Origin: Methanoculleus sp. 7T
Lineage (GTDB): Archaea; Halobacteriota; Methanomicrobia; Methanomicrobiales; Methanoculleaceae
NCBI RefSeq assembly: GCF_023195915.1
Contig: NZ_JALPRP010000001.1
Coordinates: 1,928,797 to 1,952,796 of the forward strand
Length of the DNA stretch: 24,000 bases
Direction of reading: 5' to 3'
Of the stretch, positions 1 to 24,000 are shown in pieces. The first letter of the stretch is position 1, and every line of letters begins with the position of its first letter. Below the pieces are notes generated by a model, which searched no databases, was not told the origin of the DNA, and saw only the letters and a list, made by a program, of their open reading frames with translations. The position numbers and the translations under genes are program-made.

Positions 1-3000
1 CACATGACGCTGAAGGAGTGTAACGTTGTCTATATCAATCCAGGGACTACTGGCATTTCCTGAAATAATTCTCTCGGGATGGTGGAAGTACCAACCGTCG
101 TGAGGACCATTATGGGCATAGGTGGCAATAGTTGATATTGATGTTCCTCGTCTTCCAGCGCGTCCTGCTCTTTGCTGATAGTTCTCCCTCATGGGGGGGA
201 CGTTCCTAAGGCTGATAGCAGTCAAAGAACCGATATCAATGCCAACTTCCATCGTTGTTGTACAACTCAATACATCAATAGGAAGTTCGTCATCTAACAG
301 TAGATTCTGGAACCGCATCTCGTAACTTTCTGTTGTGGACCAAATATCATCTCGCTGATCTTTGTAAGATAGTTGTGCTGTGTGTTCTTCGGTATTAATG
401 GTACGGATCGATTTGCCCGATCCCTCTGTAATTGCACCAAGGACTGGATCTCTCCAGAATTTGTATCGTTCAAGATCTCCATCATTCATCTCGTAGACAT
501 CAACCGAACCGCAATGTGCACATTTCTCGAACAGAGTATACGGGAAAATGCCTGAACAAGTTCTACAACGATGCCACTTGTGTTCATCTTCGGTTTTTAA
601 TGTAATTTTATCTAATATAAGGTAATATCTGCTCTCTTCCTCTCCGCTTCCGCGACTAAGGAATGTTTCGGAAAGTATGGATGCAATCCAGTTAATCTGT
701 TCCTGAGTATACCTTTCTATCAGGATTTTTTTAAATTTTGGTGGTAGTTTCTGCAGGTCTTTCTCTTGTATACCAAATCTAGTAAACTTACGGAGGGCAA
801 TATTGAACCGTATTTGATCCGAGATCTGGTTTCCAATAGCAAATGAGTTCGTACAGTGATAGTGAGCCCATGCCGCGAAAAGGGCAATGAATTCCTCTTC
901 GGACATCTTGATGCCATGTTCGTAAAACGAGTCAAGACAGTCTCGAATGTCGTCCTTTTCGCAAGGTTCCATCCAACCCAGTCCAAGATCGGTCAATGAC
1001 CTAAAAGGCGAGCAAAGGTTCTTTAGGAGTTGTTCTGAAAAAAGTCCTGGCTTATTCTTGAAATCACGTGTAATTCTATCATACTTGAGTGGTTTGTTCC
1101 GTTTTCCTGCTTTTTCAATGATGACCTTGATGGTTTCTAGATCTTCATTAAAGCGTTCCTTATCCCCCCCATAAAACAGGCGCAAATGATTGTAGTACGC
1201 TATCTCTAAGAATGCGGGATAAAGCATATCAAGTGTGGCACTCTCCCCTGTTTCCTCAGCCCATTGCTGTAAACGGGCAGCCGCTAGAACTAAAACCGCC
1301 CTTGCAGCCTGATCATCTGCTGTCCTTGTCATATCTTTAGCGAGTACTGCGGCCCTTTGTCTACTGTCAGAAAAGATGAGGACTTTTCTCCCAGCATTTG
1401 GTTGTCGCTTAAGTTTTTCCTCATCAAAGAGTATAGGAGGTTGGACAGATAATTGTGAAGAAACAATGTTGTAAAATGGTTCATTTCCCTTTGTAGAAAA
1501 GTCAGAAAACGAGTAACTACTTAACTGTTTTTCACATTTGGGACAATAGTAAAATGTTAATTGCTCTGGTTTCCCTTTTACTGGTTTAAGAGAATAACAG
1601 ACCTGTAAGAATCCACTCTCCCCAGCATGAATGTTGTCGAAATGGATGAACCCGGTCTTTGCATCTAGCCACCCCAAGCGGATATTTTTTTTATTTATGG
1701 GATGGTTCTTTGGATTCTGTGGGATGATATATAGATGCACTTCCTTTAACTCTTTTCCAAATATTTCCCCTGGTGTTTGCCATAAATATTTTTTATCCTC
1801 GAAATTTTCCGCATTAAGCAAGTATCCTTTAAGAAACAGGGCTCCGCATCTTCTATCATTGATTAACTCATAGATTCTCGCACCACAATGGGGACAGATG
1901 TCTTGTTCACTATCTGAGTAAATTTTACCAAGAGCGACTCCATCTCCAGTGTGTTTTTGGGGGCAATTGGGATTTGTACAGGTGTACAGTCCCTGCAGAC
2001 CACGGAAAAACATGTGCAGTCTAGCATGAAAAAGAACCTGTCTGTCTTTTTTGGCAAGTGGTAAAAGCGATAGAAGAACTTGTGTTGCAGCGAATGCGGT
2101 TTCAAAATCATCGTTTGGAAAAGCGATTACTGCGAGTTTTGTAATTTCGGTAGCGTTTCCTGCGGTTTGATTCATTATCCGCTGTACAGGTCCATATTTT
2201 GGCAATGTTTCAAATAGCCATTCTTTCAGTTCTTCAATCGTAGTATATGGGGGTCTGACCCCGTCAAGTTCTTGGAAGAACCCCTGTATTGCCAGGACTT
2301 TTTTCGCATCATCAAGTTGAAAGTCAGCCAGAGGCAGAGCACTTATCTGTTTCGCTGAGAACTCTATAGGATTCTGGGAATTAATCTTTCTGTTTGCTCC
2401 GGCAATTATCGAGAATGTATCTTTCTCACCTGAGGTAAGCTTCCTTAGAAATTCTTTTAGCTTGCTATTTGTTTCCTCACTGTCAATAGGAATACTGGCA
2501 CTGGTGAGGATGAACCGTACCTTATCACGTGTTATTCCTAATTTGTACATCAACCGGCGAATAAGGAGAGCAACCTCTCCCCCGGCGGACCCACGGTACA
2601 TGTGCGCTTCATCAATGACTATTAGGAGTTTGTTTTCTGGCGATTCGTTTAACCAATTCTTGGTGTTTGACCAGAATGGCTGCTCAATCTGTCGAATCAA
2701 CATGTATTGGAGCATTGAATAGTTGGTGACCAGAATGTCAGGACAATGATCTTGCATTTCTTTGCGGGTGATCAATTCCGCATCATGTGTATTTGGTTGA
2801 TGGACCCCTTTTTTTAGATTTGTAGTATAGGATTCTAGGTTCCATTTTGAAGGATACTTCCCAAGCGATTTGAGTTCCTCAATAAATCCTGGGCTACGGT
2901 TGATTAGGTCACGTTCCAGTGTTTTTGCCAGTTTTATATTCTTATCTTTTACAGGCTCACCCGGGTACGGCGTTCTACCTGTATACATCCCAAATTGGGG

Positions 3001-3576
3001 AATCCGTATGCTTGCATCGCAGGCATATTCTTTAAAAAGTTTATGGTATTCTCCACTGTAATCTCCAATCAGTTTCCGCAGACGACCAATCTGATCTGCG
3101 ACCAATGCATTCATGGGGTAGAGTAACAACGCTCTGACACCCCGTTTACTCCAAGTATCTGGACGTGTTTTTGCCTCAACCGCAAGGTTTGCAACAAGAG
3201 GCCACATGAAGCACTCAGTCTTTCCAGAACCCGTGCCTGTAGTCACTAAAATATCCTTTCCTTGATAAAAATCCTCAAGCGCTTTAATCTGGTGGCTATA
3301 GGGGTCTTTGAAAACCCCTAACTTCCTTTCACACATTTGGTGGAGGAATTGTTTGATATTTTCTGGGATGTTTGCATCAGCTAATCCATTGTTTAAGGCT
3401 AAGTACGTTTGGTTTGACTCGATGCAGGGATTTTTGTAAATGGAGTTATCTTCATCCAAGATCTCTTTCGATGCGTTCAAAAGAAGATCATTCTCGCCAA
3501 AGTATTGCGCCTGAATGTAGTCCTTTAGTTTTCCGACAAGCTCGCTGTGTATATGCTGAACACTGTATTCAGACAT
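1..3576 (-). CDS. Large SF2 DEAH-box helicase with Cys4 zinc-ribbon insertions; partial, C-terminus lies beyond the window edge
   Basis: My own translation of the minus strand from ATG 3576..3574 stays open for 1192 codons to nt 1. The ORF is not in the supplied track because it runs off the edge. Helicase motifs occur in order in one frame: motif I/Walker A TTGTGSGKTE (nt ~3217-3243), Ia LYPMNALVADQ, II VIDEAHMYRG (DEAH nt ~2602-2613), III LTSAS, IV-like KVLIFSDSRQRA (nt ~1357-1383), V SCTTTMEVGIDIG, VI QRAGRAGRRG (nt ~145-177). Cys4 clusters are CTNPNC...CPHCG (nt ~1879-1980) and CRTCS...CAHCG (nt ~505-567). An SD-like GGTGGTG sits just upstream of the ATG. The ATG overlaps the upstream gene's stop (ATGTCTGA). 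Confidence 0.85.
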   Translation of the reverse strand, partial: MSEYSVQHIHSELVGKLKDYIQAQYFGENDLLLNASKEILDEDNSIYKNPCIESNQTYLALNNGLADANIPENIKQFLHQMCERKLGVFKDPYSHQIKALEDFYQGKDILVTTGTGSGKTECFMWPLVANLAVEAKTRPDTWSKRGVRALLLYPMNALVADQIGRLRKLIGDYSGEYHKLFKEYACDASIRIPQFGMYTGRTPYPGEPVKDKNIKLAKTLERDLINRSPGFIEELKSLGKYPSKWNLESYTTNLKKGVHQPNTHDAELITRKEMQDHCPDILVTNYSMLQYMLIRQIEQPFWSNTKNWLNESPENKLLIVIDEAHMYRGSAGGEVALLIRRLMYKLGITRDKVRFILTSASIPIDSEETNSKLKEFLRKLTSGEKDTFSIIAGANRKINSQNPIEFSAKQISALPLADFQLDDAKKVLAIQGFFQELDGVRPPYTTIEELKEWLFETLPKYGPVQRIMNQTAGNATEITKLAVIAFPNDDFETAFAATQVLLSLLPLAKKDRQVLFHARLHMFFRGLQGLYTCTNPNCPQKHTGDGVALGKIYSDSEQDICPHCGARIYELINDRRCGALFLKGYLLNAENFEDKKYLWQTPGEIFGKELKEVHLYIIPQNPKNHPINKKNIRLGWLDAKTGFIHFDNIHAGESGFLQVCYSLKPVKGKPEQLTFYYCPKCEKQLSSYSFSDFSTKGNEPFYNIVSSQLSVQPPILFDEEKLKRQPNAGRKVLIFSDSRQRAAVLAKDMTRTADDQAARAVLVLAAARLQQWAEETGESATLDMLYPAFLEIAYYNHLRLFYGGDKERFNEDLETIKVIIEKAGKRNKPLKYDRITRDFKNKPGLFSEQLLKNLCSPFRSLTDLGLGWMEPCEKDDIRDCLDSFYEHGIKMSEEEFIALFAAWAHYHCTNSFAIGNQISDQIRFNIALRKFTRFGIQEKDLQKLPPKFKKILIERYTQEQINWIASILSETFLSRGSGEEESRYYLILDKITLKTEDEHKWHRCRTCSGIFPYTLFEKCAHCGSVDVYEMNDGDLERYKFWRDPVLGAITEGSGKSIRTINTEEHTAQLSYKDQRDDIWSTTESYEMRFQNLLLDDELPIDVLSCTTTMEVGIDIGSLTAISLRNVPPMRENYQQRAGRAGRRGTSISTIATYAHNGPHDGWYFHHPERIISGNASSPWIDIDNVTLLQRHV

Positions 3577-4609
3577 CTTGCACCACCTGAATGTTCAGAT
3601 TCTTTAGTATATTTGTAATAATTGGAAGGAATACTGGCAACGTAATGAATTCTGTTCTGTCCAAAATATTTCGAATGGGCCAAGCTACCATATAAAACAG
3701 CATTTCCTCTCTCCCTGGGAGGGCAGAGTGTAGTTTGATTTTGATGGCATCCCTGTAAGTTGTTATTATGGCTCGTTCTGGATTATGATTCAGATATCGA
3801 AAGCCATACATGAACCTACGGACCTCTTGCAACTTTACAATGTGATCTGGAAATGCATGAGTATATGTCATTCCATTTTCCTGTTTAGCAAATCCGTAAT
3901 CATCACGGTTATTTCGATACACTGTTGCTTTCCATGGGTGGCAAAGCGATTTGTCCCATGACTCGGAGAAAACTCGCCTTGAAAGCGGGTCAAAATACCT
4001 TCGAGCGTCGGATATCGTAGTGTTTGGTGTATATTCACTTCTAGCAAACTTGCTATATTTGAGAACAATTGTTTTTGCATCAGTTTGTGGTATCAAAAAG
4101 AGTTCTTCGATCGGATAGGTATCAGATTCTGAAATCCCGTCGACGTACCACCCCAGACCATATGTCTTTCCCTCTCTTCCAAATGATGTCCCACGCAGTA
4201 GATATAAGTTATTGGTAATTTTCGCGTATTTGTCGGGCGGCAACTGAATGGTGTTATCTGGCCCCGAAACTAGAAATCCAGAGAACTCCAACCTCTCTTG
4301 AATTATTTTGGCTGGTTGGATACCCTGTTTCTCCGGAGGGTAAAACCATCTCCTTACGTTCGGGTAGAGATCTAAATAGGTTGAAAGAATAATATTGCAT
4401 TTTCTGGTCACATGGTGTCTTGTGTACGGTGCATATCTTGGATCCTGAGAATCACTTTCAATCTCAAGGTTTCTATCCAATACTGCTGTTTTGGTCCACT
4501 CTGATATGGCAGAGTAGAGTATTCGAGCAATGTACGCATTTTCATCTTCACAAAAAAAACGGGTTATCCCCAGCCCCTGTGCTATGATTTCGTGGGGATC
4601 CGGTCCCAT
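3569..4609 (-). CDS. Hypothetical protein, third gene of the low-GC cassette; no motif I recognise
   Basis: Long ORF in the supplied track (3569..4627, 352 aa), but the track start at 4627 is TTG. The first ATG is at 4609, preceded by GGAGG (4625..4621) at SD distance and lying 5 nt after the upstream stop. That gives about 346 aa beginning MGPDPHEIIAQGLG. Composition and coupling match its neighbours. Confidence 0.75.
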   Translation of the reverse strand: MGPDPHEIIAQGLGITRFFCEDENAYIARILYSAISEWTKTAVLDRNLEIESDSQDPRYAPYTRHHVTRKCNIILSTYLDLYPNVRRWFYPPEKQGIQPAKIIQERLEFSGFLVSGPDNTIQLPPDKYAKITNNLYLLRGTSFGREGKTYGLGWYVDGISESDTYPIEELFLIPQTDAKTIVLKYSKFARSEYTPNTTISDARRYFDPLSRRVFSESWDKSLCHPWKATVYRNNRDDYGFAKQENGMTYTHAFPDHIVKLQEVRRFMYGFRYLNHNPERAIITTYRDAIKIKLHSALPGREEMLFYMVAWPIRNILDRTEFITLPVFLPIITNILKNLNIQVVQDV

Positions 4610-4613
4610 AAAG

Positions 4614-7109
4614 TTATTCTCCTCCAAGAAGTTTGTCTACGATCTTTTTGAGATCGTCTCTGTCAAGATATTCCAACCCTTGATTCAACTCATCTATAGT
4701 TCCAAGTAATTTGCAGTAGGTTGCAAGTTCGAGAAGTATTATAGTCTCCACATTTTTCCCATCATTTGTTGCAACCGTGGATACTATCGCAGTTCTGGTT
4801 AGATTGTATCCATTTGTTGCATTTACCGCCCGTGATAACTTAAAGATCTTCTGATAAATACTCTTAATATTCCCTTGTTTTTCAACGGGTGCAACGATGG
4901 TACAATATCCAGGGTTCAAGTCTTCAGTTTCAACGGAGGTGATTACATCATCGGAGTTCATGAAAGCCACATATCCAAGCAAACTTGGTGGGAGTATTCG
5001 CATAGTTTCTGCGAAATCGAGTGAATACAGGATGTATTTTTCTGGGTTTTTGTCGGCCATATCCTTTGCAAGGTGCGCATAGCAGTATTCATCGATGGAT
5101 CCGATGACGTTTTGAAGAAGAACTACGTTTCCAGAGGCAGTTTTTACAGTATTTATCAGTGAAGAATAGTCGGTGTAACCTGTAGGAACAGAGATTATTT
5201 CGGGTGTTTGTGAGCAGAGTGTAACTGAGATGGCCTTGGCCATGAGACTTACATTACACCCTGCAAGAAGTAGTGGAGTTCTCGTCAGATATGCCCCTGC
5301 AATAAATTCAGCAAGAATTTCAGCATATTCTTGGTCAACTCCTATGTTCTGCAGGTTTTCCTTTAGATCATAAATTAAATCCTTGAGATCTGTAATCTCG
5401 AGAGGATCTGCTCCATAGTCTTCTGCTGGTCGTATCAATAGACCTGAATTTGATACTGATGCAATACTTGCCTTTTCAGACTCCCTAGTTGGCATCAACC
5501 CTTTGAATAGTGCCAGATCACCGAGGACTCTCCCTGGGTTATGTTGTATATCCTTGAATCTCTGCTCACAATAGGACTTTAATTGGTCATTGATTGCTTC
5601 TAAAGTTCGCTTATCCCTCTCAAGTTGTGCTAACTCTTCCCGAATGCGTTGCCGATCTGCGATGTCTTTCTCCAGTTGCTCTCTGGACGCCTTCAATATC
5701 GCTATATCATTCTGGAGCCTATTAGATTCCTCACGTAGTGATTGAAGTTCGTTCAGGATTATATTTTGTTGTTCGAGGCGGAACTGCTCGCTCTCTTTAG
5801 CAATAGCCTGTAATCGTTCCTTTTTGAATACGGCAATTTCCTCAACAGCGATATTTTTTTGTTCTTTCTCAAACGCCTTGAGTTCCTGCTGGATACGTTT
5901 CTCATGGTCCTGTCTTATCCGCTCGCTCTCAGATTCAACAGTTTTTTTGAGCGATTTCAATGCATCAGTCTCAGCTGTTCTCTCTGCCGCTATTGCAAGA
6001 ATTTCACCCTTAATATCCTCGATACGATCTTCTAGATCAGCAATTTCTGCTTCTAAAGATTCTTTTTGCTCAAACAAGCCCTGATTGGCTATGTGACGTA
6101 TCTTATTAATGTATTCTTCATTGATCTTTGGTATGTGGTCAATAACACCTCTTACAAATCCTTCAACCTTATCGTCGGTATCGAGATATGAATTTATTAT
6201 TTCTATTTGTGAATCTAACCATTGCTTATTCTCTGGAGACAACGCTAATGCCGGTTGTCCCTTTGGACTTGATAGTGCTTCGATCAGGATATTTTTCATC
6301 AGTCTTTTTTCGTCCTCGGAGTAGCTTAGGCGAGTGGCAATTCGGTCAAAATACTTCGCGAGAACGGCTGAATCTGTGTGAAGTTCCAGAGTGTCTAATT
6401 TATCCTGTGGTGCAATTCTCATTTTTTGGTAGATGAGTCGTCGAGTCAGGTTTGTGTGATTCTCAGACAATAAGGTTTTATATTGCGGATCAAAGGAGTC
6501 AATAACATCTTCCTTCTTGATTTTACATCGAACCAGTGGCTTTTTATCAGTTACAAAAAGCAACTGGTCGTCACGCAGACAGGATGCTGCTTTCGTTATC
6601 TCGATACAGAAATAGAACTCTTCATCGTAATCATAAACCACAAGAAGGTTTTCTGAAAAAGTGTCTGGTACAACAATGCCTTTTTCCAATATGTGCACGA
6701 GCTCATCATCTGAGCCTATCGCAAATCTCAAGTTGCCTGGGGATTCGGAAGAGAGTTTAGAGTTCTCCAAGAAGATCAATTCGTAATAATTGTATTTGCA
6801 GTGAGGAGGTTTAGGGAGACTTAAAAAGGGGATTACGTTATACTCATCTGGAGTAGCACTTTCTTTCCATGTCCAGATACCTATGGTGTCATGCTCAAAG
6901 TGGATGGAGTTATTCTCCTTCCTAACTGGCAGGAGCATGGGTCCCCCATCTGGCTTTGTGTAGATTATGCCTACGGTGTTTACTCTACTTTTTGTCCAGT
7001 CTGTCGTGGAAATATCTGCGATCCTTAAGATTTTGATCTCTTGCTCGCTAAACCTCACTGGAATTCCTATGCAACATCGCAAGTTGGGGAATTTTTTTGG
7101 GCTTATCAT
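4614..7109 (-). CDS. 831-aa protein with a central coiled-coil of about 170 aa; second gene of the cassette; function unknown
   Basis: Uninterrupted 831-aa ORF. Its ATG overlaps the upstream stop (TAATG at 7107..7111), with AGGAG upstream. Residues ~345-516 (nt ~5560-6075) are E/K/Q/L/R/I-rich and heptad-like (EAEIADLEDRIEDIKGEILAI...LQNDIAILKASREQLEKDIADRQRIREELAQLERDKRTLEAINDQLK). The C-terminal part contains a strand-loop-helix resembling a P-loop but lacking GK[ST] (TPLLLAGCNVSLMAKAISV). Confidence 0.85.
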   Translation of the reverse strand: MISPKKFPNLRCCIGIPVRFSEQEIKILRIADISTTDWTKSRVNTVGIIYTKPDGGPMLLPVRKENNSIHFEHDTIGIWTWKESATPDEYNVIPFLSLPKPPHCKYNYYELIFLENSKLSSESPGNLRFAIGSDDELVHILEKGIVVPDTFSENLLVVYDYDEEFYFCIEITKAASCLRDDQLLFVTDKKPLVRCKIKKEDVIDSFDPQYKTLLSENHTNLTRRLIYQKMRIAPQDKLDTLELHTDSAVLAKYFDRIATRLSYSEDEKRLMKNILIEALSSPKGQPALALSPENKQWLDSQIEIINSYLDTDDKVEGFVRGVIDHIPKINEEYINKIRHIANQGLFEQKESLEAEIADLEDRIEDIKGEILAIAAERTAETDALKSLKKTVESESERIRQDHEKRIQQELKAFEKEQKNIAVEEIAVFKKERLQAIAKESEQFRLEQQNIILNELQSLREESNRLQNDIAILKASREQLEKDIADRQRIREELAQLERDKRTLEAINDQLKSYCEQRFKDIQHNPGRVLGDLALFKGLMPTRESEKASIASVSNSGLLIRPAEDYGADPLEITDLKDLIYDLKENLQNIGVDQEYAEILAEFIAGAYLTRTPLLLAGCNVSLMAKAISVTLCSQTPEIISVPTGYTDYSSLINTVKTASGNVVLLQNVIGSIDEYCYAHLAKDMADKNPEKYILYSLDFAETMRILPPSLLGYVAFMNSDDVITSVETEDLNPGYCTIVAPVEKQGNIKSIYQKIFKLSRAVNATNGYNLTRTAIVSTVATNDGKNVETIILLELATYCKLLGTIDELNQGLEYLDRDDLKKIVDKLLGGE

Positions 7110-8722
7110 TACTTTCTAGTCTCCTGATTTAATTCAGATATGAGATGATAGTATGCTCGCCTTGATATTTTTCTGGATATTATCGCTTTTCTGAGATATT
7201 CATCCCTTTTAGGGCAATTTCCGAGATGATTCCGAATATATTTCACTTTCACGGGGGTTGATATAAACATATCTCCTCCCAAAGCGAGTTTCTGATACAT
7301 CATGTCATCGCATTTTATTGAGTCTCTCATTATGGTCCGAATGCGTTTTGGAACACTCACCTGGTAAGTTACATCCATTCCATGGCGTACGCATATCTTG
7401 TCTCCGTCGGAGAGGTTTAAAAATGCATGAATAGTTTGTTCATTCCAGTAAACGCTTTTCAGTTGTTCTTCTGAGTGATGATAAATATTACATTTGCTGT
7501 CTGAGTTAAAAGACAGGGTTATCCTGTCCTTGAGGAGAAAGGAGTCGCCGTTTTCAAGTGGTTTACTATCACACTCCAGTAATATTTCAGGAGGTTTGTA
7601 ATGTGATATCTCATCAGAACACCCGCACATGAGGTGAACCTTACATCCTCCGTTGGAGGTAATATCTGTAGAGTCCTTGATTGAGAGGTCTAGTAACCAT
7701 CCCGTGTTAATCCGAATCTTTGGAATGGGTTTTCTGGACTGCCTTTTTGTTTGCTGATAATAACTAAATCTATCTGCTTTTTGCGCTAGGCTGAGGATGT
7801 GCGTTGGTCTGCTGTACAACTGTCTGTTCCCATGTTGCACATGAGGAGGCCAGAGTGGAATTAATGGAGGGTGCCACTCGATAAGTTTGACCCTGAGATT
7901 ATTTGCAAACTCCTGAGCGTTTTCTGTGACCTTGATAAATTGTATTCGATAGATCCGCCACTCAGATTCATATCCGAAGGATTTCCCCTCCAGTGTTCCT
8001 AATGGTTCATATTCGAGAAAATCTTCAGTGTGATCTGGTATTTTAGAGGCTGTCGCCAGATAATAATACTTATCTGTCGTTATCTCTGCGTTTTCTGAGA
8101 TACCACGAGCATAAGTATTACTGCTGTATCTAAACAATGCCCCTTCTTCTGGGAGTCCCGCTTGATATTCCCTCCAGCTTTTAATAATACCCTGATTAAC
8201 CGAACATTCACTGTATTTAAGGGAGTAATAATCGCATATCCACTTCAATTGAATATATGTGCTCTCCCCCGCGACTACTTGACTCATAAGGAGTCTATTT
8301 TCTTTGAGCTCTGCATTATTTGGATTGATAATTTGTACTATGAGGTTTTCGTTTCTAGCAGATGCAACGATCTTTTCTTCTAATGGGGAAAAGCCAAGAA
8401 AGAGTCCAAAGGTCTCTCCCCCCTTTAAAATGTAGATATTTTTTGAACGTTGGCCTGACTTGCGCTCCTCCTGCTGTCTCTGATACATGGCCGCATATCT
8501 ATTATCCGAATAATGGTTGGGGCAATCTTGGGTTTTGGGATTATTTGGAAGGTGTCTAAAGTAGGTTCTCTCATCCCCATTTACTAGCCTAACCGGTTCT
8601 CTGCACTCTGGGCAAATAAAATTGGCACTTTTGAAAAAATGAAAGTAAGGGTCATTTGCAAGGGCTCTTGCATAAACCAACTCTTTACATCCGGAAGATC
8701 TCTTCCTGATTGCGTAATCCAC
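7109..8722 (-). CDS. 537-aa protein with an N-terminal CoiA-like zinc finger; first long gene of the cassette; function unknown
   Basis: Uninterrupted ORF with a GTG start at 8722, preceded by AAGAGGGG (SD-like). Residues 35-71 read FICPECREPVRLVNGDERTYFRHLPNNPKTQDCPNHY. This fits the CxxC-(x13)-[YH]F.H-...-C pattern I associate with the N-terminus of CoiA-like competence/nuclease family proteins. The rest has no motif I recognise. Confidence 0.85.
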   Translation of the reverse strand: MDYAIRKRSSGCKELVYARALANDPYFHFFKSANFICPECREPVRLVNGDERTYFRHLPNNPKTQDCPNHYSDNRYAAMYQRQQEERKSGQRSKNIYILKGGETFGLFLGFSPLEEKIVASARNENLIVQIINPNNAELKENRLLMSQVVAGESTYIQLKWICDYYSLKYSECSVNQGIIKSWREYQAGLPEEGALFRYSSNTYARGISENAEITTDKYYYLATASKIPDHTEDFLEYEPLGTLEGKSFGYESEWRIYRIQFIKVTENAQEFANNLRVKLIEWHPPLIPLWPPHVQHGNRQLYSRPTHILSLAQKADRFSYYQQTKRQSRKPIPKIRINTGWLLDLSIKDSTDITSNGGCKVHLMCGCSDEISHYKPPEILLECDSKPLENGDSFLLKDRITLSFNSDSKCNIYHHSEEQLKSVYWNEQTIHAFLNLSDGDKICVRHGMDVTYQVSVPKRIRTIMRDSIKCDDMMYQKLALGGDMFISTPVKVKYIRNHLGNCPKRDEYLRKAIISRKISRRAYYHLISELNQETRK

Positions 8723-8739
8723 TGAAACCCCTCTTTAAA

Positions 8740-8907
8740 TCAATGATATGTTCTTTCAGTTAAGATAATCTCGTCGAATTGTTCATGTAGGCGATCTGTG
8801 AGAACAAACTCATCCTGTGCTTTGTCATAGGGTGTTTCCGGCAAGCTTATCCCACCTTCAGGCGATCTCGCTGTATGACGCTCTCCTCCGACATCCCAAA
8901 AGGCCAT
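8740..8907 (-). CDS. Possible 55-aa ORF spanning the GC/AT compositional junction (speculative)
   Basis: Hand translation gives MAFWDVGGERHTARSPEGGISLPETPYDKAQDEFVLTDRLHEQFDEIILTERTYH, with its stop at 8742..8740. That is 17 nt upstream of the GTG of the 537-aa gene. The ORF is below the 60-aa cutoff of the supplied track. Its 5' half is GC-rich and its 3' half AT-rich. There is no recognisable motif. Confidence 0.2.
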   Translation of the reverse strand: MAFWDVGGERHTARSPEGGISLPETPYDKAQDEFVLTDRLHEQFDEIILTERTYH

Positions 8908-8983: not shown

Positions 8984-9478
8984 TCACCGGCTCACCAGCG
9001 CAGGCAGCCGCCCGTTGTGCGCCTCTTGGTATCTCTCCTTCAGGGCTTCCTCGGCAGTTCCCGGATGATCGTCGACGACCATCCACCCGTACTGCAGTTC
9101 CCACCCGGATGAGAGGAGCGCCCATAGAGGGTACTGAGCAGTATGGCGGGTTGCAAATTCCAGGTATCGGGCGTGGAGGGTGTTCTTGCTCCCGGGGTGT
9201 GTCCCTGCCGACCCAATGTAGATCGTCAGGCAGTCGTCGATCGCCAGGAGTCGGTCAAGCCGGCTGCGAAGAAACCGGCCTGCCACGTCCCAGCCAATTG
9301 ACCTGGCCAGACCGACGGCCTTCTCGTGGACCTCTCCTACTGGAGTTCCGCGTCGGTGAATCCGGATGACGTAAACCCCTTTCCGCTTCGGTGGTTCTGC
9401 GTCCTGAAACCGCGTGAACTCAAACTTGTCGAAGAGGCCGTTGCAGCAGCCGCCTTCCAGCGAAGATCCTTTCATCAT
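8984..9478 (-). CDS. GIY-YIG-like nuclease domain protein (tentative)
   Basis: 164-aa ORF starting 10 nt downstream of the PLD gene stop, so probably co-transcribed. It contains KGVYVIRI (GIY-like), TIYIGSAG (YIG-like), LHARYLEF (conserved Arg region) and C-terminal AEEALKERYQEAHNGRLPAL (Glu-containing helix). The spacing between the GIY and YIG elements is longer than canonical, so the family call is tentative. Confidence 0.6.
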   Translation of the reverse strand: MMKGSSLEGGCCNGLFDKFEFTRFQDAEPPKRKGVYVIRIHRRGTPVGEVHEKAVGLARSIGWDVAGRFLRSRLDRLLAIDDCLTIYIGSAGTHPGSKNTLHARYLEFATRHTAQYPLWALLSSGWELQYGWMVVDDHPGTAEEALKERYQEAHNGRLPALVSR

Positions 9479-9488: not shown

Positions 9489-10259
9489 TTACCGATAGTA
9501 GGTCTTGTAGCAGTCATCGCAGATTGGCCGGGTCTTTGTTGTCGCATGTTTGGTCCCGCACTTGTGACAGACCTTCTCCTTGTAATCTGGGTTGTTGAAG
9601 CGGGTCCAGGAAGCAAAGCACTTCGGACAGTACGGCTTCTCCGGGTTATAATCGATCGTCGCTCCGCACCGGATGCAGTACGCAGCCTCCCCCAGCACCG
9701 TGTCCAGCGCCTTCTCGAAGAACCCTTTCTTTGGAGGGGCTTTCAGCTTCGGCGATATGGTCCTGATGGGTTTTCTCGGTTCATAGGTCCGTTGATTCAC
9801 GTTGGCCGCCGCAGCCGTCTGGTTGTTGCTCTCCGGGCTGCTTGCTTGCAAGATCCTTTCAACTTCTTCAAGCGTCTGGGTGTAGAGGACCGGATCGGTC
9901 TCCCGGAAAAACCGGACACCCATCTCCCAGTTGTTGCTCTGCGAGTGCTCGTAAAGGTTCATCGAGGTGATTATGCCGAACTGCTCGTTGATGTAGCATT
10001 TGGCGTGGAGGTCGTTGCACTTGTAGAGTTGAGCGCTCTGCAATTGTTTGAGAAACGCCAGGTCCTCCGGATTGGGGTTCGTGTCGCTCCGGTAGACGAT
10101 GTCGATGGGGACCTTTTTGTCGTCAATGCTCTGGAGGTATTTCCTGTTGTGCGGGGTCAGGCTGATGTAGGGAGAGATGATGAAGATTTGCTCCTCTGCG
10201 TTCTTGATGATCTCGATGAACGCTGCACTTACCCCCAATGCGTCGAGAAAATCTGCCAT
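9489..10259 (-). CDS. PLD/HKD-family (Nuc-like) nuclease domain protein with C-terminal tandem zinc ribbons
   Basis: 256-aa ORF with an ATG at 10259 and AGGAG upstream. It has a single HKD-type motif, LHAKCYINEQFGIITSMNL (HxKx4E...TSxN). The C-terminus has CIRCG...CPKC and CHKCG...CDDC pairs. The 238-aa plus-strand ORF 9546..10262 is its antisense shadow. Confidence 0.85.
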   Translation of the reverse strand: MADFLDALGVSAAFIEIIKNAEEQIFIISPYISLTPHNRKYLQSIDDKKVPIDIVYRSDTNPNPEDLAFLKQLQSAQLYKCNDLHAKCYINEQFGIITSMNLYEHSQSNNWEMGVRFFRETDPVLYTQTLEEVERILQASSPESNNQTAAAANVNQRTYEPRKPIRTISPKLKAPPKKGFFEKALDTVLGEAAYCIRCGATIDYNPEKPYCPKCFASWTRFNNPDYKEKVCHKCGTKHATTKTRPICDDCYKTYYR

Positions 10260-11493: not shown

Positions 11494-11564
11494 GGTTAAA
11501 GAGATCGACTCCTTGATACGAGAGCCATCTCTATCTTTCCAGGTGACGGCTGGAATTGGATAAC

Positions 11565-11576
11565 GTTTTCATTTTT
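11565..11576 (+). terminator. Oligo-T tracts downstream of the NERD gene (possible archaeal terminator)
   Basis: gttttcattttt lies 72 nt after the NERD stop. Archaeal RNAP commonly terminates at T-runs. This is weak evidence. Confidence 0.2.
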
Positions 11577-11715
11577 CGGGTGCGAGTAAGTTGATATGAT
11601 TGCTCTCTGGGCATATCTGTGGACTTTTGTGTTCTGGTGAGTTCGGTAAAAAAATCTAGCCGGGTGTTACCTATATATGAAAAGCTATAATTTTAAATAG
11701 GATAACAATAATCTA

Positions 11716-11934
11716 ATGGAACTGGATCTCTTCGTTACTGTTACAGTAAGTATTATTTCCGCTCTTGGGGGAGGTGTTATGACCTATAGCACAGTAAGAG
11801 TGAGTATAGAGTCAAGATTGAAGGAATTAGAAAAAGAAGTCCAACTCCTAGGGCCAATTAAATGTATTTTGTTAGAGAAGGGCAGTGAACATGTAATTGA
11901 CGTCTTTAAGGGGGGTAACCATGAGTCTCACTAA
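11716..11934 (+). CDS. Small hypothetical membrane protein (72 aa, N-terminal TM segment)
   Basis: ORF in the A+T-rich islet. It has an N-terminal hydrophobic helix (LFVTVTVSIISALGGGVMTY). TATA-like strings (cctatatatg, ttttaaata) lie 17-45 nt upstream. Its 3' end overlaps the next ORF by 14 nt. Confidence 0.45.
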   Translation: MELDLFVTVTVSIISALGGGVMTYSTVRVSIESRLKELEKEVQLLGPIKCILLEKGSEHVIDVFKGGNHESH

Positions 11935-12127
11935 AACAGAGTTCAATAAAATGGAATATCTGTTAGGAAAAGCGAAAGTGCAAGGACTCACTCCATCCGA
12001 AGAGGGAGAATTAAGAATGTACGTTTCCAAAGAACGTCCCTCTGCAAAGAATTCATCGCTTGAAGATCTTATTGCTCTTGGCTTGATCCTCGTTGGAATT
12101 TACCTTCTAATCAAAGCCCTCGAATAA
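11921..12127 (+). CDS. Small hypothetical membrane protein (68 aa, C-terminal TM segment)
   Basis: The track ORF starts at TTG 11897, but the ATG at 11921 is preceded by AAGGGGGGT (SD-like). It has a C-terminal hydrophobic helix (LIALGLILVGIYLLIKAL). It overlaps the upstream small ORF, which suggests coupling. Confidence 0.45.
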   Translation: MSLTKTEFNKMEYLLGKAKVQGLTPSEEGELRMYVSKERPSAKNSSLEDLIALGLILVGIYLLIKALE

Positions 12128-12216
12128 TTTGTATACCAAAATCTGACTTTAACAACTACCAATAGTTTTTCATCTCGGCACTTGCGATACAATGTATCCG
12201 AAAAGCACTCAAAGGG

Positions 12217-12734
12217 TTATACAGCCTTCTCGACCCTCTCCTTCAGCCCGGACGCGAACGCCTCCATCGAGTCCAGGTCTTTGAACCCGGCGAAGATAAC
12301 CTTCCCTGACGAGAATACGAGAGCGGTCCCTGCCTCGCCCCGGTAGATCAGGCCCGGGAACTGCTCGGGCTCGTACTCGACCTGCTCCATCCTGAGCGCG
12401 ACGACGAGTCGTGATAGTGGGACTTCTATCTGGAAGTCATCCATGCCGACGACATTCCGGATTTCCGGCGCCGTTGCGAGTGAAGGATCAATGATGGGTA
12501 AGTTTAGGGTGAGGAACTCCTGATAGGACTTATCAACATCGTCAAGGGACGTAAGGCCGTAGATGATGTACTTCCCGCTCCGGTAGATGGTTGGCCTTCC
12601 CCTGGAGAGGAGGATGTAGGCCCCGTGGTAGATCTTAGGGTCATACTTATAGGTAGACTCGAGAGCTCCGGCAACCGCTCAAATGGGATCGGCTGGTGGA
12701 GGTCGCCGGAAGCAACGATGTTGATGATCTTCAT
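12217..12734 (-). pseudogene. tbp: TATA-box-binding protein (TBP) paralogue interrupted by a 1-nt frameshift
   Basis: The second TBP repeat is intact in ORF 12217..12444 and its upstream extension: VEYEPEQFPGLIYRGEAGTALVFSSGKVIFAGFKDLD. The first repeat starts at ATG 12734 (MKIINIVASGDLHQPIPFE) but is in a different frame. The two frames join near nt 12675-12680, and the downstream frame has a TGA immediately upstream of the junction. The span is 518 nt, which is not a multiple of 3. Adding one nt would give about 173 aa with two TBP-like repeats. Confidence 0.7.
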
Positions 12735-13214
12735 TCCCAAATATGAACGGGACCCCGGCAAGACCTTCTTCTGGCGGGACGGGATGCTGAAGTAACCTAC
12801 CTCACCCCTGCCCAGCACCCGCACGATCACCGCCACCACCCCGCCGGCCCCGGCGCTCACCGTCGATAACCTCCGCTCCTCTCCCACTTCCTCCGCCCGA
12901 GAGCCGCTCCGGCGCCCAGCAACATGGTCCCGGAAGACCGGGCTCCCGGGTGGTCTTCTCGTTGGTCATCCCCGTAACCTTCCCTGAGGACAGCAGAATG
13001 GGGAAGAGACAAATCCTGCCCGTGAGGGCTATGCCGGGGGATCCGGGCCTCCCGGAGAAATGCCCCGCGATCAGCCTCGACGATGCCGGCGTGACGGAGG
13101 ACGGCGGGTGCGGGGTCACGGTCCGCCGCCGGGAGCAGTACTTCATGTTCGACCGTGAGGTCTACCGGACCTGGAGCAGGGGTACTTCCGTCTGGCTGGA
13201 CGGACGACCCGACG

Positions 13215-13296
13215 ATGACAGCAATGACAGCAGTTTTCAGCAGAATGACAGCAACTGCTGTCATTCTGCTGTCAACGTGCTGTCACATGCTGTCAT
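13215..13296. repeat. Array of seven TGACAGCA 8-mers (3 forward, 4 reverse) centred on a perfect 16-bp inverted repeat
   Basis: ATGACAGCA occurs at 13215, 13224 and 13245. Its complement TGCTGTCA occurs at 13256, 13267, 13278 and 13288. Spacings are 9, 21 | 11, 11, 10 bp. The arms cagcagaatgacagca (13238..13253) and tgctgtcattctgctg (13256..13271) are exact reverse complements separated by 2 nt. Confidence 0.8.
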
Positions 13297-13767
13297 TCTC
13301 CACCACCGGTCGACCCCCCGACTCCATCCCCTCCCGGTGGCAAAGGACGGGCCCGGGCCCGCGTCTGCGGCCGGCGGCCGACACCCTCCGTGAAACGGGG
13401 CGGCCTCCGTTACAACCGCCTTGCGAAGGCGAAGCGGCCCGGGAAAGTGCAACCCCTCTCCCCGGCGTGCTCGACCGCCGGGAGTTTTCCCGGATAAAGG
13501 CCGAACTCGGCCGGTGCGACGCGGGGAGAAAATGGCGGTCTACCGCTCGCGGGAGGCGCAGGCGAAGGTCTGCGATCAGTGCTGCGCCCGGGAGTGGAAC
13601 GGGCGGGCGGAGAGGGTCGTGTACGCATGACCTGCCGGATAAGGAACGGCGGGTGTCCGGGCATCGAAGGTGGGAAGCAGAAACGCAGTGAGCACCGGAG
13701 GTGCGAAGGAAGACGGATGGCACAGAAAGAGTATAACGGATACTTCCTCATTGTTGAGAGAAAAGCA

Positions 13768-14517
13768 ATGACCCGAAACCTTCGTGCGATTCTGTGCCTC
13801 CTCATACTGCTCTCGGCGGCTGCATCCCCGGCAACCGCCGGGGATGTCACGTCCGAGACGTCGATGAAACTCTCGATCACCTCCCCAAAGCAGTATGATA
13901 CGATATGGAGCGATCTCGCCCCGCCCCGCGCCGAGGTCGCCGGCAGGGCCGAAGCCTCGAATGGGATACGGGACGTGGTTGTCGCGAGCGGCGCCGGGGA
14001 GGTGTCATGCGGGAACGGGACCGAGTTTGCCTGCTCCGTCCCGGTCACGGAGGGGAACGAGACGATCACCGTGACCCTGATCGATAACCTGGGAAAAACT
14101 TCGGACGCGGTCCTGAACGTCTACGTCAACGTCGACGTCCCCCCGCCGCCCCGGATCTCTGCGATCGGGACGGTGAGGGACAGCGACGGCCGTCCGGTCC
14201 CGGGCGCGGCGGTGAGGTTTGAGTCCGTCCTCCCATTGAACGGCGCACCGTATCCCCTGGCGACCGAGACCGCCGGTGATGGAAGCTACCTGATAGAGAA
14301 CGCGTTTGGCTACGGGCAGACCGTCTCGGTCGAGAAGGACGGCTACCTCCCCCTGCACCGGGTGGTCGTCTTTGAGGAGACCGTCAACAGGCTCGACTTG
14401 GAACTGGAGCCGGAGCCGCAGGGGAGGGCGGTTCCCGGGTTCTCCGCCTGGATTGGCGTGCTTGCGCTCTCGGGAGGACTGCTCGCCGCCCGTGTGGCGA
14501 GGAGGCGGAGGGGGTGA
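13768..14517 (+). CDS. Secreted surface protein with a carboxypeptidase-regulatory-like domain and a PGF-CTERM archaeosortase sorting signal
   Basis: The track ORF starts at 13579. ATG 13768 gives a classic signal peptide (MTRNLRAILCLLILLSAAASPATAGD), with TATA-like gagtataa 33 nt upstream. A CarboxypepD_reg-like segment reads GTVRDSDGRPVPGAAVRFES...GDGSYLIENA...VSVEKDGYLP. The C-terminus PGFSAWIGVLALSGGLLAARVARRRRG has PGF, a TM helix and a basic tail. Confidence 0.85.
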   Translation: MTRNLRAILCLLILLSAAASPATAGDVTSETSMKLSITSPKQYDTIWSDLAPPRAEVAGRAEASNGIRDVVVASGAGEVSCGNGTEFACSVPVTEGNETITVTLIDNLGKTSDAVLNVYVNVDVPPPPRISAIGTVRDSDGRPVPGAAVRFESVLPLNGAPYPLATETAGDGSYLIENAFGYGQTVSVEKDGYLPLHRVVVFEETVNRLDLELEPEPQGRAVPGFSAWIGVLALSGGLLAARVARRRRG

Positions 14518-14660
14518 AGCGAGGATGAGGACCCGCCCGCTCACCCTTTCGCTCGTCGTCACGGCCGCGGCATCGAGTTGAGGCTGAAGAAGGATCCGCT
14601 CCTGCAGTAGGGCCTGAATCCCGGGAGATTTAAACTCAGATAAGCATTGTATCATCTACC

Positions 14661-14667
14661 TTTTTTT
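14661..14667 (+). terminator. T7 run downstream of the PGF-CTERM gene (possible terminator)
   Basis: ttttttt lies about 145 nt after the stop codon in an otherwise GC-rich spacer. This is weak evidence. Confidence 0.2.
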
Positions 14668-14923
14668 CCTCTGAGGACCCAAGTGTCTTTCCAGGGGATC
14701 CTATACCTTTTCGCGTTCGGACTCTGCAAATCCTGTCTGAATAACAGATCCCGGCATTACCGGGCCTGAGCAACTCGCAACACCCCGCAGGACGCAATCC
14801 CGGTCATGAAGGAGATGCCGAACCGGCGATATACCATGGACCCGCCTCCGGCGAGTGAAGGACCGGATCGAAGGCGGTGACAATCTCTTCTCTCTTCCGC
14901 AGATGATGGTCCACGAAAACACT

Positions 14924-14931
14924 GATATATT
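14924..14931 (+). promoter_or_regulatory. TATA-like box upstream of the 228-aa secreted-protein gene
   Basis: gatatatt is centred about 33 nt upstream of ATG 14961, in a GC-rich background. Confidence 0.3.
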
Positions 14932-14960
14932 GGGATACTAATAGCGCTCGAGGTCGAGCA

Positions 14961-15647
14961 ATGAGAGCATCGATAAGATTGCTGGCAGGCTGCCTGCTGA
15001 TGCTGCTGCTGGCATGTCAGGCTTCCGCCATGGCTCCGCCCGCATGGGTGCAACCCGGAACGACAGTGACGTATCAAGCCGCATTAACCCCATACTACGG
15101 TATCGATCCCGACGATCCGATGGAGCGGTGGGTGCATTACGAAGGGACCGGAGTATACGGCTACCTGACCGATACGGTCACCGGCGGGGACGCACAGAGC
15201 GGTTATTCCGGCGACTCGGTGGTGATCAGCGGCATCGATGGAAACATCCTGTATCAGGGCACATGGTCGTATCAACCCGGAGACCCGGGTATCGGGCTGG
15301 TGCCGTTCTGGGTCGACCTCGATAATCCCGCATTCGACCAGCAGTTCCTGGTCCTCGAGGGCCCGCTGGAACTTGCCGGGCAGCAGTGGAATGCGCAGGT
15401 CTATTACTACGCAAACCTCGGGACCAGCTTCGATATCCGCTACGTCGTCGATAACGACAGCGGTCTCGTTTTAGTCAAGAATGCGGGACTGACCGGCGCC
15501 AACAACCAGATGCAGAGGGAGATCTACATACTGCAGTCGGTCGAGACCGGATACCCTGGGAGTGGCAGACCGGAGAACACTACCCGCGAGGTGGTCGAGG
15601 GCGCCCGGAGTGCAGGAGAGGTCTGGCGATCGAGGATGTCCTCATAA
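14961..15647 (+). CDS. Secreted hypothetical protein (signal peptide, Y/G/D-rich beta-type sequence)
   Basis: 228-aa ORF with an N-terminal signal peptide (MRASIRLLAGCLLMLLLACQASAMAPP). The third codon position is strongly G/C, as in neighbouring host genes. I recognise no family motif. Confidence 0.75.
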   Translation: MRASIRLLAGCLLMLLLACQASAMAPPAWVQPGTTVTYQAALTPYYGIDPDDPMERWVHYEGTGVYGYLTDTVTGGDAQSGYSGDSVVISGIDGNILYQGTWSYQPGDPGIGLVPFWVDLDNPAFDQQFLVLEGPLELAGQQWNAQVYYYANLGTSFDIRYVVDNDSGLVLVKNAGLTGANNQMQREIYILQSVETGYPGSGRPENTTREVVEGARSAGEVWRSRMSS

Positions 15648-15991
15648 TCAGGAACGAGGACTTGGGGCACAACCCCGATCTCAGGGGCGAGGCGCCGTTA
15701 TACGGTGTTCTTCGGGGCGGCTCGCAGTACGGCCCAAGTCTCCGCAAACGTGCGTAAGAGTGCCCCGATACCTACGGTTCTTCAATCACCGGATACTGTT
15801 TGGATCTGTTCCTGACTGCCGACCCATTCCCTCCGGCACATTACCCGGGACGAGCGGGCCGTCGCCACGGGGTCGTTCAGCCCCGGTGCAACAGCCGGTA
15901 TCGGCTTTAGATCCCGTGCATAGGCCGCTCCTTGCGCCCGTCCGGACAGTCGCGGATCCGACACCCGGGCAAAGGAGGGAACCCGACGTTC

Positions 15992-16270
15992 CTACTGTGC
16001 AAGGATCTTCTGCTTCTCCTGCTGGAACTCTTCCTCGGTCAGGGCCCCCATCTGCTTCAGTTCCGCCAGTTGCTTGAGTTGAGCCAGTTTCTGCTCCTGG
16101 GTCATGCCCGACTGGGCGGATGCGGGGGATGCCTGTTGCGACTGCGCCTCCTTCTGCATCTCTCTCTGTTGCATTCGCTTGTTGACCGCTCGGGATGTCG
16201 CGGTGGCCGTTCCGGCGACCACCGCCGTGCGAGCCACGGTGCCGATAAGGCCCGGTCGACCGCCTCTCAT
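15992..16270 (-). CDS. SHOCT-domain protein
   Basis: 92-aa ORF with GGAGGAGG 6 nt upstream of the ATG. The C-terminus KLAQLKQLAELKQMGALTEEEFQQEKQKILAQ matches the short C-terminal (SHOCT) domain pattern. Confidence 0.75.
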   Translation of the reverse strand: MRGGRPGLIGTVARTAVVAGTATATSRAVNKRMQQREMQKEAQSQQASPASAQSGMTQEQKLAQLKQLAELKQMGALTEEEFQQEKQKILAQ

Positions 16271-16300
16271 GATACGCCTCCTCCGATGTTCATACTTCTA

Positions 16301-16756
16301 TCAACTCGCTGTACCGCCACCGGCTGCTCTCTCCTCCTCGGGCCTCCATGCAAGCGCGGCGTCGACCACCTCTTTTGGGATGCGTTCGCCCGCGATCATC
16401 CGCCCATGGGCGTTCAGGACAGCATCCCGGAACCTCTTCGCCCACAGATGCTCGAACAGAAACAGCGCCGCAGAACTGTTGTTCTCCATGATCTCGCCGA
16501 CCTTGCGGATATCCTCTTCGGCAAGAAGTGTAGTCGCCTCCCGTGCGAGCGGGGCGAATGCATTTGCCGCATCTTTTTGAAGATCGCCGAGTTCCATCGC
16601 GCTGACGTTGCCCTGTTCGTCCTTCCTCACGAAGACCAGGTCGATGATTCGGATGACGCCCTTGTCGACCACCTCACGCAACGCCGGGAGAATCTCGCCT
16701 TTGAACTGGTTCCCCGGGAATTCGATGACCATATACTCCACCGGACCAAGAGACAT
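16301..16756 (-). CDS. DUF6325/DUF1269-like protein (MxxGPVEYxVIEFPGN family)
   Basis: The track ORF runs to 16885. The internal ATG at 16756 gives MSLGPVEYMVIEFPGNQFKGEILPALREVVDKGVIRIIDLVFVRKDEQGNV. This is the conserved N-terminus I recall for this family, which is often paired with a SHOCT gene. It lies 30 nt upstream of the SHOCT gene. Confidence 0.75.
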   Translation of the reverse strand: MSLGPVEYMVIEFPGNQFKGEILPALREVVDKGVIRIIDLVFVRKDEQGNVSAMELGDLQKDAANAFAPLAREATTLLAEEDIRKVGEIMENNSSAALFLFEHLWAKRFRDAVLNAHGRMIAGERIPKEVVDAALAWRPEEERAAGGGTAS

Positions 16757-17178
16757 AGCGCGCCTCCGGAGCAGGATGCCGGTCCAACTATATAACCCAG
16801 ACTGCTGCACGGTATACCAACTGTTTCCATCGGCGTTTGGGTTCGAAGAGGCGATAAAACGCCGCTTGGGCCCCCTGAGGTCCAACTCTCCGGCAGACCG
16901 ATGATACTTGAGACGTCGGGAGAAGGATGACGTCAGGACCGGTGCCCGGCCCGGCAGGGAGCGATCCCGTACGAAGAGACGCAGGGTTTAAATACCGGAA
17001 TTGCATCAGAACTCGATGTCATCTCCGGCTGGTTTCTGCATGGGTCATCATCCGGCGGCATTCCATTCGCCCCTGCGATAGGCTACGTCCTCACTCCTCA
17101 AGGCCCGAACCACGGCATTCTCGCGGAAATGCGATACCTAACCGCCGGAGCACGGATCCGATCTGAGAGGTATCCCCT

Positions 17179-18896: not shown

Positions 18897-18906
18897 TTAT
18901 TTATAT
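18897..18906 (+). promoter_or_regulatory. TATA box upstream of the PsiE-like gene (consistent with a leaderless mRNA)
   Basis: ttatttatat is centred about 27 nt upstream of ATG 18929. It is the only A/T block in a GC-rich spacer. Confidence 0.35.
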
Positions 18907-18928
18907 CGATCTGCATGATAGGCCGTGC

Positions 18929-19381: not shown

Positions 19382-19429
19382 ATGGGCAGCCGGCAAAAAT
19401 CGAGGGTTCCAAGCGAACTCGCTCTACGA

Positions 19430-23994: not shown

Positions 23995-24000
23995 GGCGAT

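Follow-up and report, generated by a model that had tools for sequence, protein, structure and literature searches.

What is the low-GC block of four genes that opens a 24,000-nucleotide stretch of the Methanoculleus sp. 7T genome, and does it belong to a system that already has a name? This stretch, the whole of which we call the window, was the subject of a preliminary description made from its sequence, which took the block for a candidate uncharacterised system against mobile genetic elements, perhaps new or highly divergent, with accessory proteins not recognised as belonging to any named system. Our searches lead to a different answer, as the four genes can be assigned to a known lineage. 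With good confidence, we read the cassette as druB-druC-druD-druE of the Druantia type I (DruE1) lineage, in a distinct clade that has no druA. Type I (DruABCDE) is reportedly owed to Doron et al. in 2018. The placement follows from four protein matches and from a gene order and gene sizes that mirror annotated type I loci; the preliminary description had itself remarked on a Druantia-like layout.

Identity of the four genes

Four coupled minus-strand genes of 537, 831, 346 and at least 1192 codons, each with a Shine-Dalgarno (SD)-like motif, had been described, and all of this was confirmed (Table 1). The junctions are tight: the druB stop and the druC start share the letters TAATG and overlap by 1 nt, the druC stop lies 4 nt before the ATG of druD, and druD and druE overlap by 8 nt (ATGTCTGA). 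The purine runs before the four starts read GAGGGG, AGGAG, GGAGGAG and AGGTGG. The four genes have a GC content of 0.41-0.42, against 0.60 at window positions 13001-24000 and roughly 60% in the host genome. A public contig identical to the window (L001; 0 mismatches across 13,119 nt), which continues for 3.27 kb beyond nt 1, places the end of the low-GC block exactly at the druE stop codon, 1.77 kb outside the window; beyond it, GC is back to a host-like 0.59-0.66, starting with a gene for a 383-aa HNH_4 protein. The horizontal acquisition proposed from base composition is thereby upheld, as is the archaeal host, Methanoculleus sp. 7T, which a TBP fragment in the window fits. Directly 5' of the druB start, about 60 nt are conserved in Methanomicrobiales cassettes (the window, L006, L007, L009 and L010). 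In the alignment of these five loci the conserved block, ...ATTATCTTA...ATATCATTG.TTTAAAGAGG..TTTCA, stands immediately before the GTG start. To judge from its sequence, this leader, which moves together with the cassette, is probably the cassette's own promoter with its SD/ribosome-binding site. The cassette is a horizontally acquired, translationally coupled operon.

The match of the helicase is the strongest of the four. Full-length DruE, recovered from the identical contig, has 1780 aa and fits the PADLOC DruE1 profile over its entire length, at positions 3-1774 of 1776 and with 1932 bits, and the part encoded in the window reaches 1437 bits (E=0). The DruE2-4 profiles score at most 635 bits on the full protein, with DruE3 at 583 bits or less. 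Pfam recognises DEAD, Helicase_C and MZB/DUF1998, the last at residues 1576-1656, so that DUF1998 lies within DruE itself, outside the window. GTGSGKT stands at residue 114 and DEAH at residue 322, four CxxC pairs are present, and the protein shows all superfamily 2 (SF2) helicase motifs together with zinc-binding inserts and the MZB domain. By these motifs and profile matches, DruE is classed as a YprA/MrfA-family SF2 DEAH helicase of the DruE1 subtype. Its relatives in the PDB are type III DruE (9tu7, E=1e-77; 9wae, E=2e-69) and Bacillus subtilis YprA/MrfA (6znp, E=9e-17). The tail that follows the MZB domain is poorly conserved and almost without invariant residues, which agrees with the inactivated C-terminal Vsr-like domain predicted for type I DruE (PMC12458937).

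The third gene product, previously labelled an orphan, turned out to match PADLOC DruD1 (PDLC00008) over its full length (E=2.3e-28, residues 14-349 on profile positions 7-332 of 338). It has 346 aa in every sister locus, with no relative in Pfam, NCBIfam or the PDB and no recognisable domain. The match of the second product to PADLOC DruC1 (PDLC00007) is partial (E=4.8e-11, residues 385-632). As a coiled coil may give spurious similarity, the DruC family alignment was compared with DruC of Ralstonia UW163, a locus cited as a complete type I system (PMC7251935). Here, hhalign placed residues 549-684 on 326-463 (E=3.5e-5, probability 72%), a region beyond the coiled coil, whose register agrees with that of the DruC1 alignment; BLASTP between the two proteins gave E=1.5e-4. 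Because the match is only partial, we regard the DruC assignment as moderately supported. DruC is predicted to begin with a region rich in beta strands, followed by a long coiled-coil hairpin (about residues 312-523) and, at the C terminus, an alpha/beta and helical region. From its AF2 model, which had a predicted local distance difference test score (pLDDT) of 49 on a shallow alignment, only the secondary structure was used. A Walker A motif was not found in DruC. The Methanomicrobiales DruC is about 200 aa longer than the canonical protein, chiefly at the N terminus. Bacterial DruC from loci without druA has the canonical size (610-653 aa), so the additional residues are not a general compensation for DruA.

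The first gene product, DruB, is barely recognised by existing profiles: PADLOC DruB1 gave E=6e-4 only, confined to the zinc ribbon. This marginal match led to an exhaustive profile search with DruB, which returned 364 clusters (at 50% identity), most of about 500-550 aa and most matched over their full length. DruB was the sole PADLOC family matched by any of 40 sampled relatives. A 40-sequence family profile aligned by hhalign with the DruB of Pseudomonas putida over residues 28-291 (94.6% probability, E=6.4e-8), ending at a common IPxWP motif and leaving the C-terminal half unaligned. An AF2 model (mean pLDDT 83) predicts an N-terminal CxxC...H...C zinc ribbon, tandem immunoglobulin (Ig)-like beta-sandwich domains, and a C-terminal helical domain. 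In Foldseek, the PDB entries that come closest to this model are arrays of Ig-like domains, with probabilities of up to 0.99; global TM-scores are low, which is to be expected of flexible arrays. Across the 40 relatives, only the zinc ligands and a few aromatic, glycine or proline positions are invariant, which argues against DruB being an enzyme.

But is this protein not CoiA-like, as first described and as its RefSeq name, 'competence protein CoiA family protein', has it? The similarity to CoiA_N is sub-threshold (21.4 bits against a cutoff of 26.3) and restricted to the zinc ribbon at residues 31-60, and Pfam finds no CoiA nuclease or C-terminal domain. The CoiA competence family was dropped as an identity for DruB; in all probability the RefSeq name over-annotates a protein that is DruB-like. 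More generally, neither a nuclease nor a methyltransferase domain was detectable in the druB-druE products by Pfam, PADLOC, and other profile and PDB scans.

Taken as a repair helicase of the MrfA/YprA kind beside a CoiA-like protein, the cassette might be a housekeeping module for DNA repair or competence with no part in immunity, as the PDB match of DruE to B. subtilis YprA/MrfA and the NCBI protein name could suggest. However, the DruE1 score is far above that of any repair helicase, the CoiA similarity is limited to the zinc ribbon, and patchy distribution, variable flanks and foreign GC do not suit a core gene set. We consider a housekeeping role extremely unlikely. The idea of a categorically new system, unrelated to any named one, draws on the silence of Pfam and NCBIfam for DruC and DruD, on their sub-threshold result for DruB, and on family members that bear no informative names. 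That DruE1 and DruD1 are matched over the full length refutes this idea. The four proteins correspond, in the expected order, to DruB, DruC, DruD and DruE, and relatives of the B protein match no PADLOC family other than DruB. To a wholly new system we give next to no probability. The assignment to a single named system is full for DruE and DruD, and partial for DruC and DruB.

How does the cassette compare with known systems? It shares with the type I loci of P. putida pKF715A (L011) and Ralstonia solanacearum UW163 pUW163a (L013) the co-directional, tightly coupled order B-C-D-E and similar gene sizes. Further points of likeness are a DruE that fits DruE1 over its whole length, contains DEAD, Helicase_C and MZB/DUF1998 and has a degenerate C-terminal tail, a DruD that aligns in full with DruD1, a DruC with a coiled coil and the following domain in common, and a DruB alike in its zinc ribbon and first domains up to the IPxWP motif. 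It differs in its lack of druA, in a DruE merely 31-33% identical, in the unalignable C-terminal half of DruB, in the longer Methanomicrobiales DruC, and in its archaeal host. The accessory proteins also score far lower, as the PADLOC B, C and D models give 500-900 bits on canonical proteins and 0-97 bits in this clade.

Closer in host is a haloarchaeal DruE1 locus on a plasmid of Natrialbaceae archaeon AArc-T1-2 (L012), whose DruE also matches DruE1 end to end (1569 bits) and is about 31% identical to that of Methanoculleus. In contrast to the cassette, this locus keeps a long DruA of 705 aa on the opposite strand and has two accessory proteins only, of which one matches DruD1 weakly (E=7e-6) and the other nothing in PADLOC. 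In its accessory genes, the DruE1 lineage is more variable than the ABCDE scheme would have it.

Type III Druantia (DruH-DruE), the one Druantia with a characterised mechanism, resembles the cassette in its large YprA-family DruE, in having no methyltransferase, and in the tandem Ig-like folds of an accessory protein, reported for DruH and predicted here for DruB. The cassette differs by having no DruH match, three accessory proteins instead of one, and a DruE that scores far higher with DruE1 than with DruE3. Moreover, type III DruE carries PLD-type nuclease domains (PMC12458937), which Pfam did not detect in the full DruE of the cassette. DISARM and ARMADA likewise have a YprA-family helicase with DUF1998/MZB, and a PLD-family gene lies near the cassette in the window. 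DISARM had already been set aside in the preliminary description for want of a methyltransferase and a separate DUF1998 gene, and correctly so: no methyltransferase was found among the window proteins scanned, there is no separate DrmB or BrxHII-like helicase with the cassette, and DUF1998 is fused into DruE. DrmA models match generic helicase motifs only (E ~1e-12), and the neighbouring PLD protein, which is not conserved with the cassette, reaches 28.2 bits against a DrmC cutoff of 133. DISARM, ARMADA and type III Druantia were rejected as identities.

Absence of druA across the clade

The one unusual feature of the cassette, overlooked in the preliminary description, is that druA is missing. 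Neither PF14236 (DUF4338) nor the PADLOC DruA models matched any protein of the window, and tblastn with three real DruAs returned nothing at E<=0.3 in the window, in the identical contig, or in ten other related loci. A DruA hidden Markov model (HMM), run with --max on six-frame translations of these 12 cassette-bearing sequences, gave a best E of 3.1. The same tools find DruA where it exists: the HMM reaches E<=1e-184 on canonical loci, PF14236 gives E=8e-81 and 5e-34 on known DruAs, and a Pseudomonas DruA finds haloarchaeal DruA at E=5e-16. A DruA fused to or hidden within DruB or DruC was tried and discarded (hhalign probability <1%), as was a split DruA in the form of two small genes 5' of the cassette in metagenome contig L016, where no DruA signal was seen. 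One small gene upstream of that cassette has, by eye only, a DxTHG-like motif. Type I Druantia is defined as five genes, DruABCDE (PMC13316683; PMC7251935). Since DruA, one defining feature of this definition, is lacking, we file the cassette as a DruA-less variant of known Druantia type I; it is not a canonical member.

The four genes, first described as a set in one genome, occur together in ten other loci, where all four are intact and druA is again absent. Among archaea these are Methanogenium sp. S4BF (L006) and Methanogenium sp. MK-MG (L022), Methanofollis formosanus (L007), and Methanoplanus endosymbiosus (L009) and M. limicola (L014). A cultured bacterium, Paenibacillus gallinarum (L021), carries the cassette as well, and the remaining loci are metagenome contigs: L010, of the Methanomicrobiales clade, and L016, L018 and L020. 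Counted with the identical contig L001, this gives eleven related loci, seven of which are from Methanomicrobiales. Further family members come from Paludibacter. The identity of DruE to that of Methanoculleus falls from 75-78% in the closest Methanomicrobiales to 47-57% in other loci without druA and to 31-33% in loci with druA, including the haloarchaeal plasmid. How far the family appears to extend is a matter of method: word-indexed searches with DruB, DruC and DruD reached the tight Methanomicrobiales clade only, whereas the exhaustive profile search went further. Scans of genome contigs added one more locus with a 10-sequence DruB alignment and none with a single DruD sequence.

Could druA simply have been deleted from a canonical type I locus, leaving four genes as a non-functional remnant? 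The five-gene definition would suggest so, and 'incomplete' Druantia loci have been reported in Ralstonia strains (PMC7251935). Against such decay, at least 12 loci keep the four reading frames intact and at a constant length, and in two domains of life the encoded proteins have drifted apart to identities of 24-84%. The tight gene overlaps are kept, a conserved leader stands directly 5' of druB, and the DruB family comprises 364 clusters. A remnant would not be kept or horizontally spread in this way, and we therefore consider decay very unlikely.

Neighbouring genes and traces of mobility

Table 1. Coordinates of the cassette, its neighbours and other features mentioned in the text (window positions unless another sequence is named)
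Feature	Position	Strand	Remarks
Leader 5' of druB	8723..8781	minus	conserved; from upstream alignment of five loci
druB	8722..7109	minus	537 aa, GTG start
druC	7109..4614	minus	831 aa
druD	4609..3569	minus	346 aa from ATG; upstream TTG at 4627 would give 352 aa
druE	3576..1, running beyond nt 1	minus	N-terminal 1192 of 1780 codons in window; 1767 nt further outside
164-aa protein	8984-9478	minus	GC 0.61, host-like
PLD gene	9489-10259	minus	PLDc_2, E=2.3e-10
383-aa HNH protein	L001 14996-16147		about 1.9-3.0 kb beyond nt 1, directly downstream of druE; C-terminal HNH_4, E=4e-8
Low-GC patch	11494-12216		GC 0.39
75-aa open reading frame	12217-12444	minus	TBP domain PF00352, E=5.7e-13
127-aa open reading frame	12504-12887	minus	TBP-like by eye, no Pfam match
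MFS/sugar-transporter gene	17179-18585	plus	near the cassette
MFS/sugar-transporter gene	19430-20923	minus	near the cassette
Haloarchaeal DruE1 locus	L012 3376-14418		plasmid
tRNA 3'-end-like sequence	L010 1-29		contig end, about 420 nt upstream of druB
Degenerate copy of the tRNA-end-like sequence	L007 ~9540-9575		upstream in Methanofollis

Of the three nuclease-family genes first noted beside the cassette, the PLD gene and the NERD gene (E=7e-14) are confirmed. The supposed GIY-YIG-like gene is not: its 164-aa product has no match in Pfam, NCBIfam, PADLOC, PHROGs or the PDB. The PLD protein ends in a double zinc ribbon, and its N-terminal 150 aa match phrog_9329, a phage family of unknown function (E=4.7e-37); it probably works as a nuclease on its own, or belongs to defence or to a mobile element. 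On the other side of the cassette, the HNH protein has host-like GC and weak matches to Cas9-HNH and phage HNH domains. None of the PLD, 164-aa, NERD and HNH genes stands beside the cassette in any sister locus, and for this reason we do not count them as parts of the system. They make the region variable and defence-island-like.

These genes nevertheless invite the thought that the system has five components after all, with a variable, non-homologous neighbour in the place of DruA or with DruA acting in trans. The candidates in and beside the window would be the PLD zinc-ribbon protein, the 164-aa protein and the downstream HNH protein. Nuclease-family flanks here (PLD, NERD, HNH), defence genes flanking the cassette elsewhere (ZacB/ZacC beside that of L020, an McrB-like gene beside that of P. 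gallinarum), and the failure to detect a nuclease in DruB-DruE all speak for this, as does the accessory plasticity of the haloarchaeal locus, with its divergently oriented long DruA and two further proteins. Yet no neighbour is common to different genera, the GC of the window neighbours (0.54-0.61) is unlike that of the cassette (0.41), and a 262-nt gap that holds the cassette leader parts druB from the PLD and 164-aa genes. We judge a fifth component of this kind unlikely, and prefer the DruA-less four-gene cassette.

What surrounds the cassette differs by genus: haem biosynthesis genes, GlnA, genes of the major facilitator superfamily (MFS) with insertion sequence (IS) elements, an SLFN/AlbA_2-domain gene, or an ABC-F ATPase. 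The upstream neighbours of both Methanogenium cassettes are haem-biosynthesis genes, and those of other loci are a sensor gene, IS elements, an AAA_14 gene or the ABC-F ATPase. In both Methanogenium genomes the cassette sits at the same chromosomal site, just after a haem/sirohaem biosynthesis operon, implying either vertical inheritance within the genus or a common insertion site. Cassettes of about 0.40 GC are found in hosts of 0.55-0.63 GC. No direct repeats or att sites of at least 11 nt were found to flank the cassette, save two chance-level 11-mers in L001, and the window holds no tRNA.

Some further observations concern the edges of these regions. The L010 contig begins with a sequence resembling a tRNA 3' end, GGTCCTGAGTTCGAATCTCAGCGGGCCCA, of which Methanofollis has a degenerate copy (Table 1). 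ARAGORN calls no tRNA there, and no matching downstream repeat was found; the sequence may have been left behind by an integration event aimed at a tRNA gene. MFS/sugar-transporter genes lie near the Methanoculleus cassette and flank that of Methanoplanus endosymbiosus on both sides, which may be coincidence or a shared variable region. Within the window, two small reading frames, one of them with a TBP domain, may together be a TBP paralogue, interrupted or frameshifted, on the margin of the variable region. Between them and the NERD gene lies a second low-GC patch with two small overlapping hydrophobic reading frames (72 and 76 aa) that have no PHROGs match.

A possible mechanism and its meaning

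Beyond identity and architecture, which the searches establish, we infer how the system might act from its relatives. Type III DruE is a 3'->5' helicase at junctions of single- and double-stranded DNA, and the type III accessory protein DruH has a central region of Ig-like repeats (10.64898/2026.05.12.722862; 10.64898/2026.05.13.724313). By analogy, the DruE of the cassette would load on free ends or on such junctions in invading viral or plasmid DNA and translocate 3'->5' using ATP, an activity shown for type III DruE only. DruB, with its zinc ribbon and Ig-like domains, DruC and DruD could form a sensor or adaptor module that recruits or licenses DruE; in this module DruC may resemble SMC/Rad50 in its long coiled coil, with globular ends that would not be ATPases, and the three proteins would sense or hold the ends or forks of invader DNA. 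Unwinding by DruE would then block replication of the invader. As no nuclease is detectable by sequence in the four proteins, it would fall to a cryptic nuclease or to nucleases of the host to degrade the DNA. Self and non-self would be told apart by DNA structure, that is, by ends and forks; this is likelier than epigenetic marking, since the operon holds neither DruA nor a methyltransferase.

Several points weigh against our interpretation. Type I Druantia of E. coli has been linked to m6A modification of the host, by a gene as yet unidentified (10.1101/2024.04.14.589459), so that the mechanism here may be one based on modification. No nuclease effector was identified in the cassette, and the defence role of the DruA-less clade is a putative one, suggested by its genes. 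As for the identity, the assignments of DruB and DruC are partial alignments, covering the N-terminal half of the former and about 135-250 residues of the latter at 72% probability, and only 9 of the 40 distant DruB relatives reach the PADLOC DruB1 model. As for the absence of DruA, the search in Methanoculleus spanned the 24-kb window and about 3 kb of flank, and DruA may be encoded elsewhere in the genome; the L010 and L018 contigs extend less than 500 nt upstream of the cassette and carry little information on the matter.

Finally, we would like to consider what a Druantia without DruA might mean. Our tentative view, held at slightly less than an even chance, is that druBCDE is a self-sufficient, separately evolving subtype that ranges from methanogenic archaea to Firmicutes and Bacteroidota. 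The literature searched yielded no druBCDE form and no Druantia from a methanogen; one large survey of YprA helicases was covered in part, so that a prior description is possible. The profile sets now in use catch only the helicase of this clade, with DruD and DruC marginally, and loci without druA are thus probably under-counted or called incomplete, especially in archaea. This exposes a blind spot of current defence-system profiles for archaea. In RefSeq, 'competence protein CoiA family' and 'coiled-coil domain-containing protein' should give way to DruB-like and DruC-like as names.

Among the broad-range phage defences that have been tested in E. coli, type I Druantia ranks with the strongest (10.1101/2024.04.14.589459). 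A natural and widespread clade without DruA offers a ready comparison, from which one can learn what functions (self-marking, sensing, effector) depend on DruA and what functions belong to DruB-DruE. Should the four genes prove self-sufficient, DruA would be an accessory module instead of a core component, and the B-C-D-E complex would be the minimal type I machine. Foreign DNA would then be recognised by its structure, at ends or forks, and not by a modification mark, and the cassette would be the first tractable system through which to approach Druantia in methanogens and their viruses.

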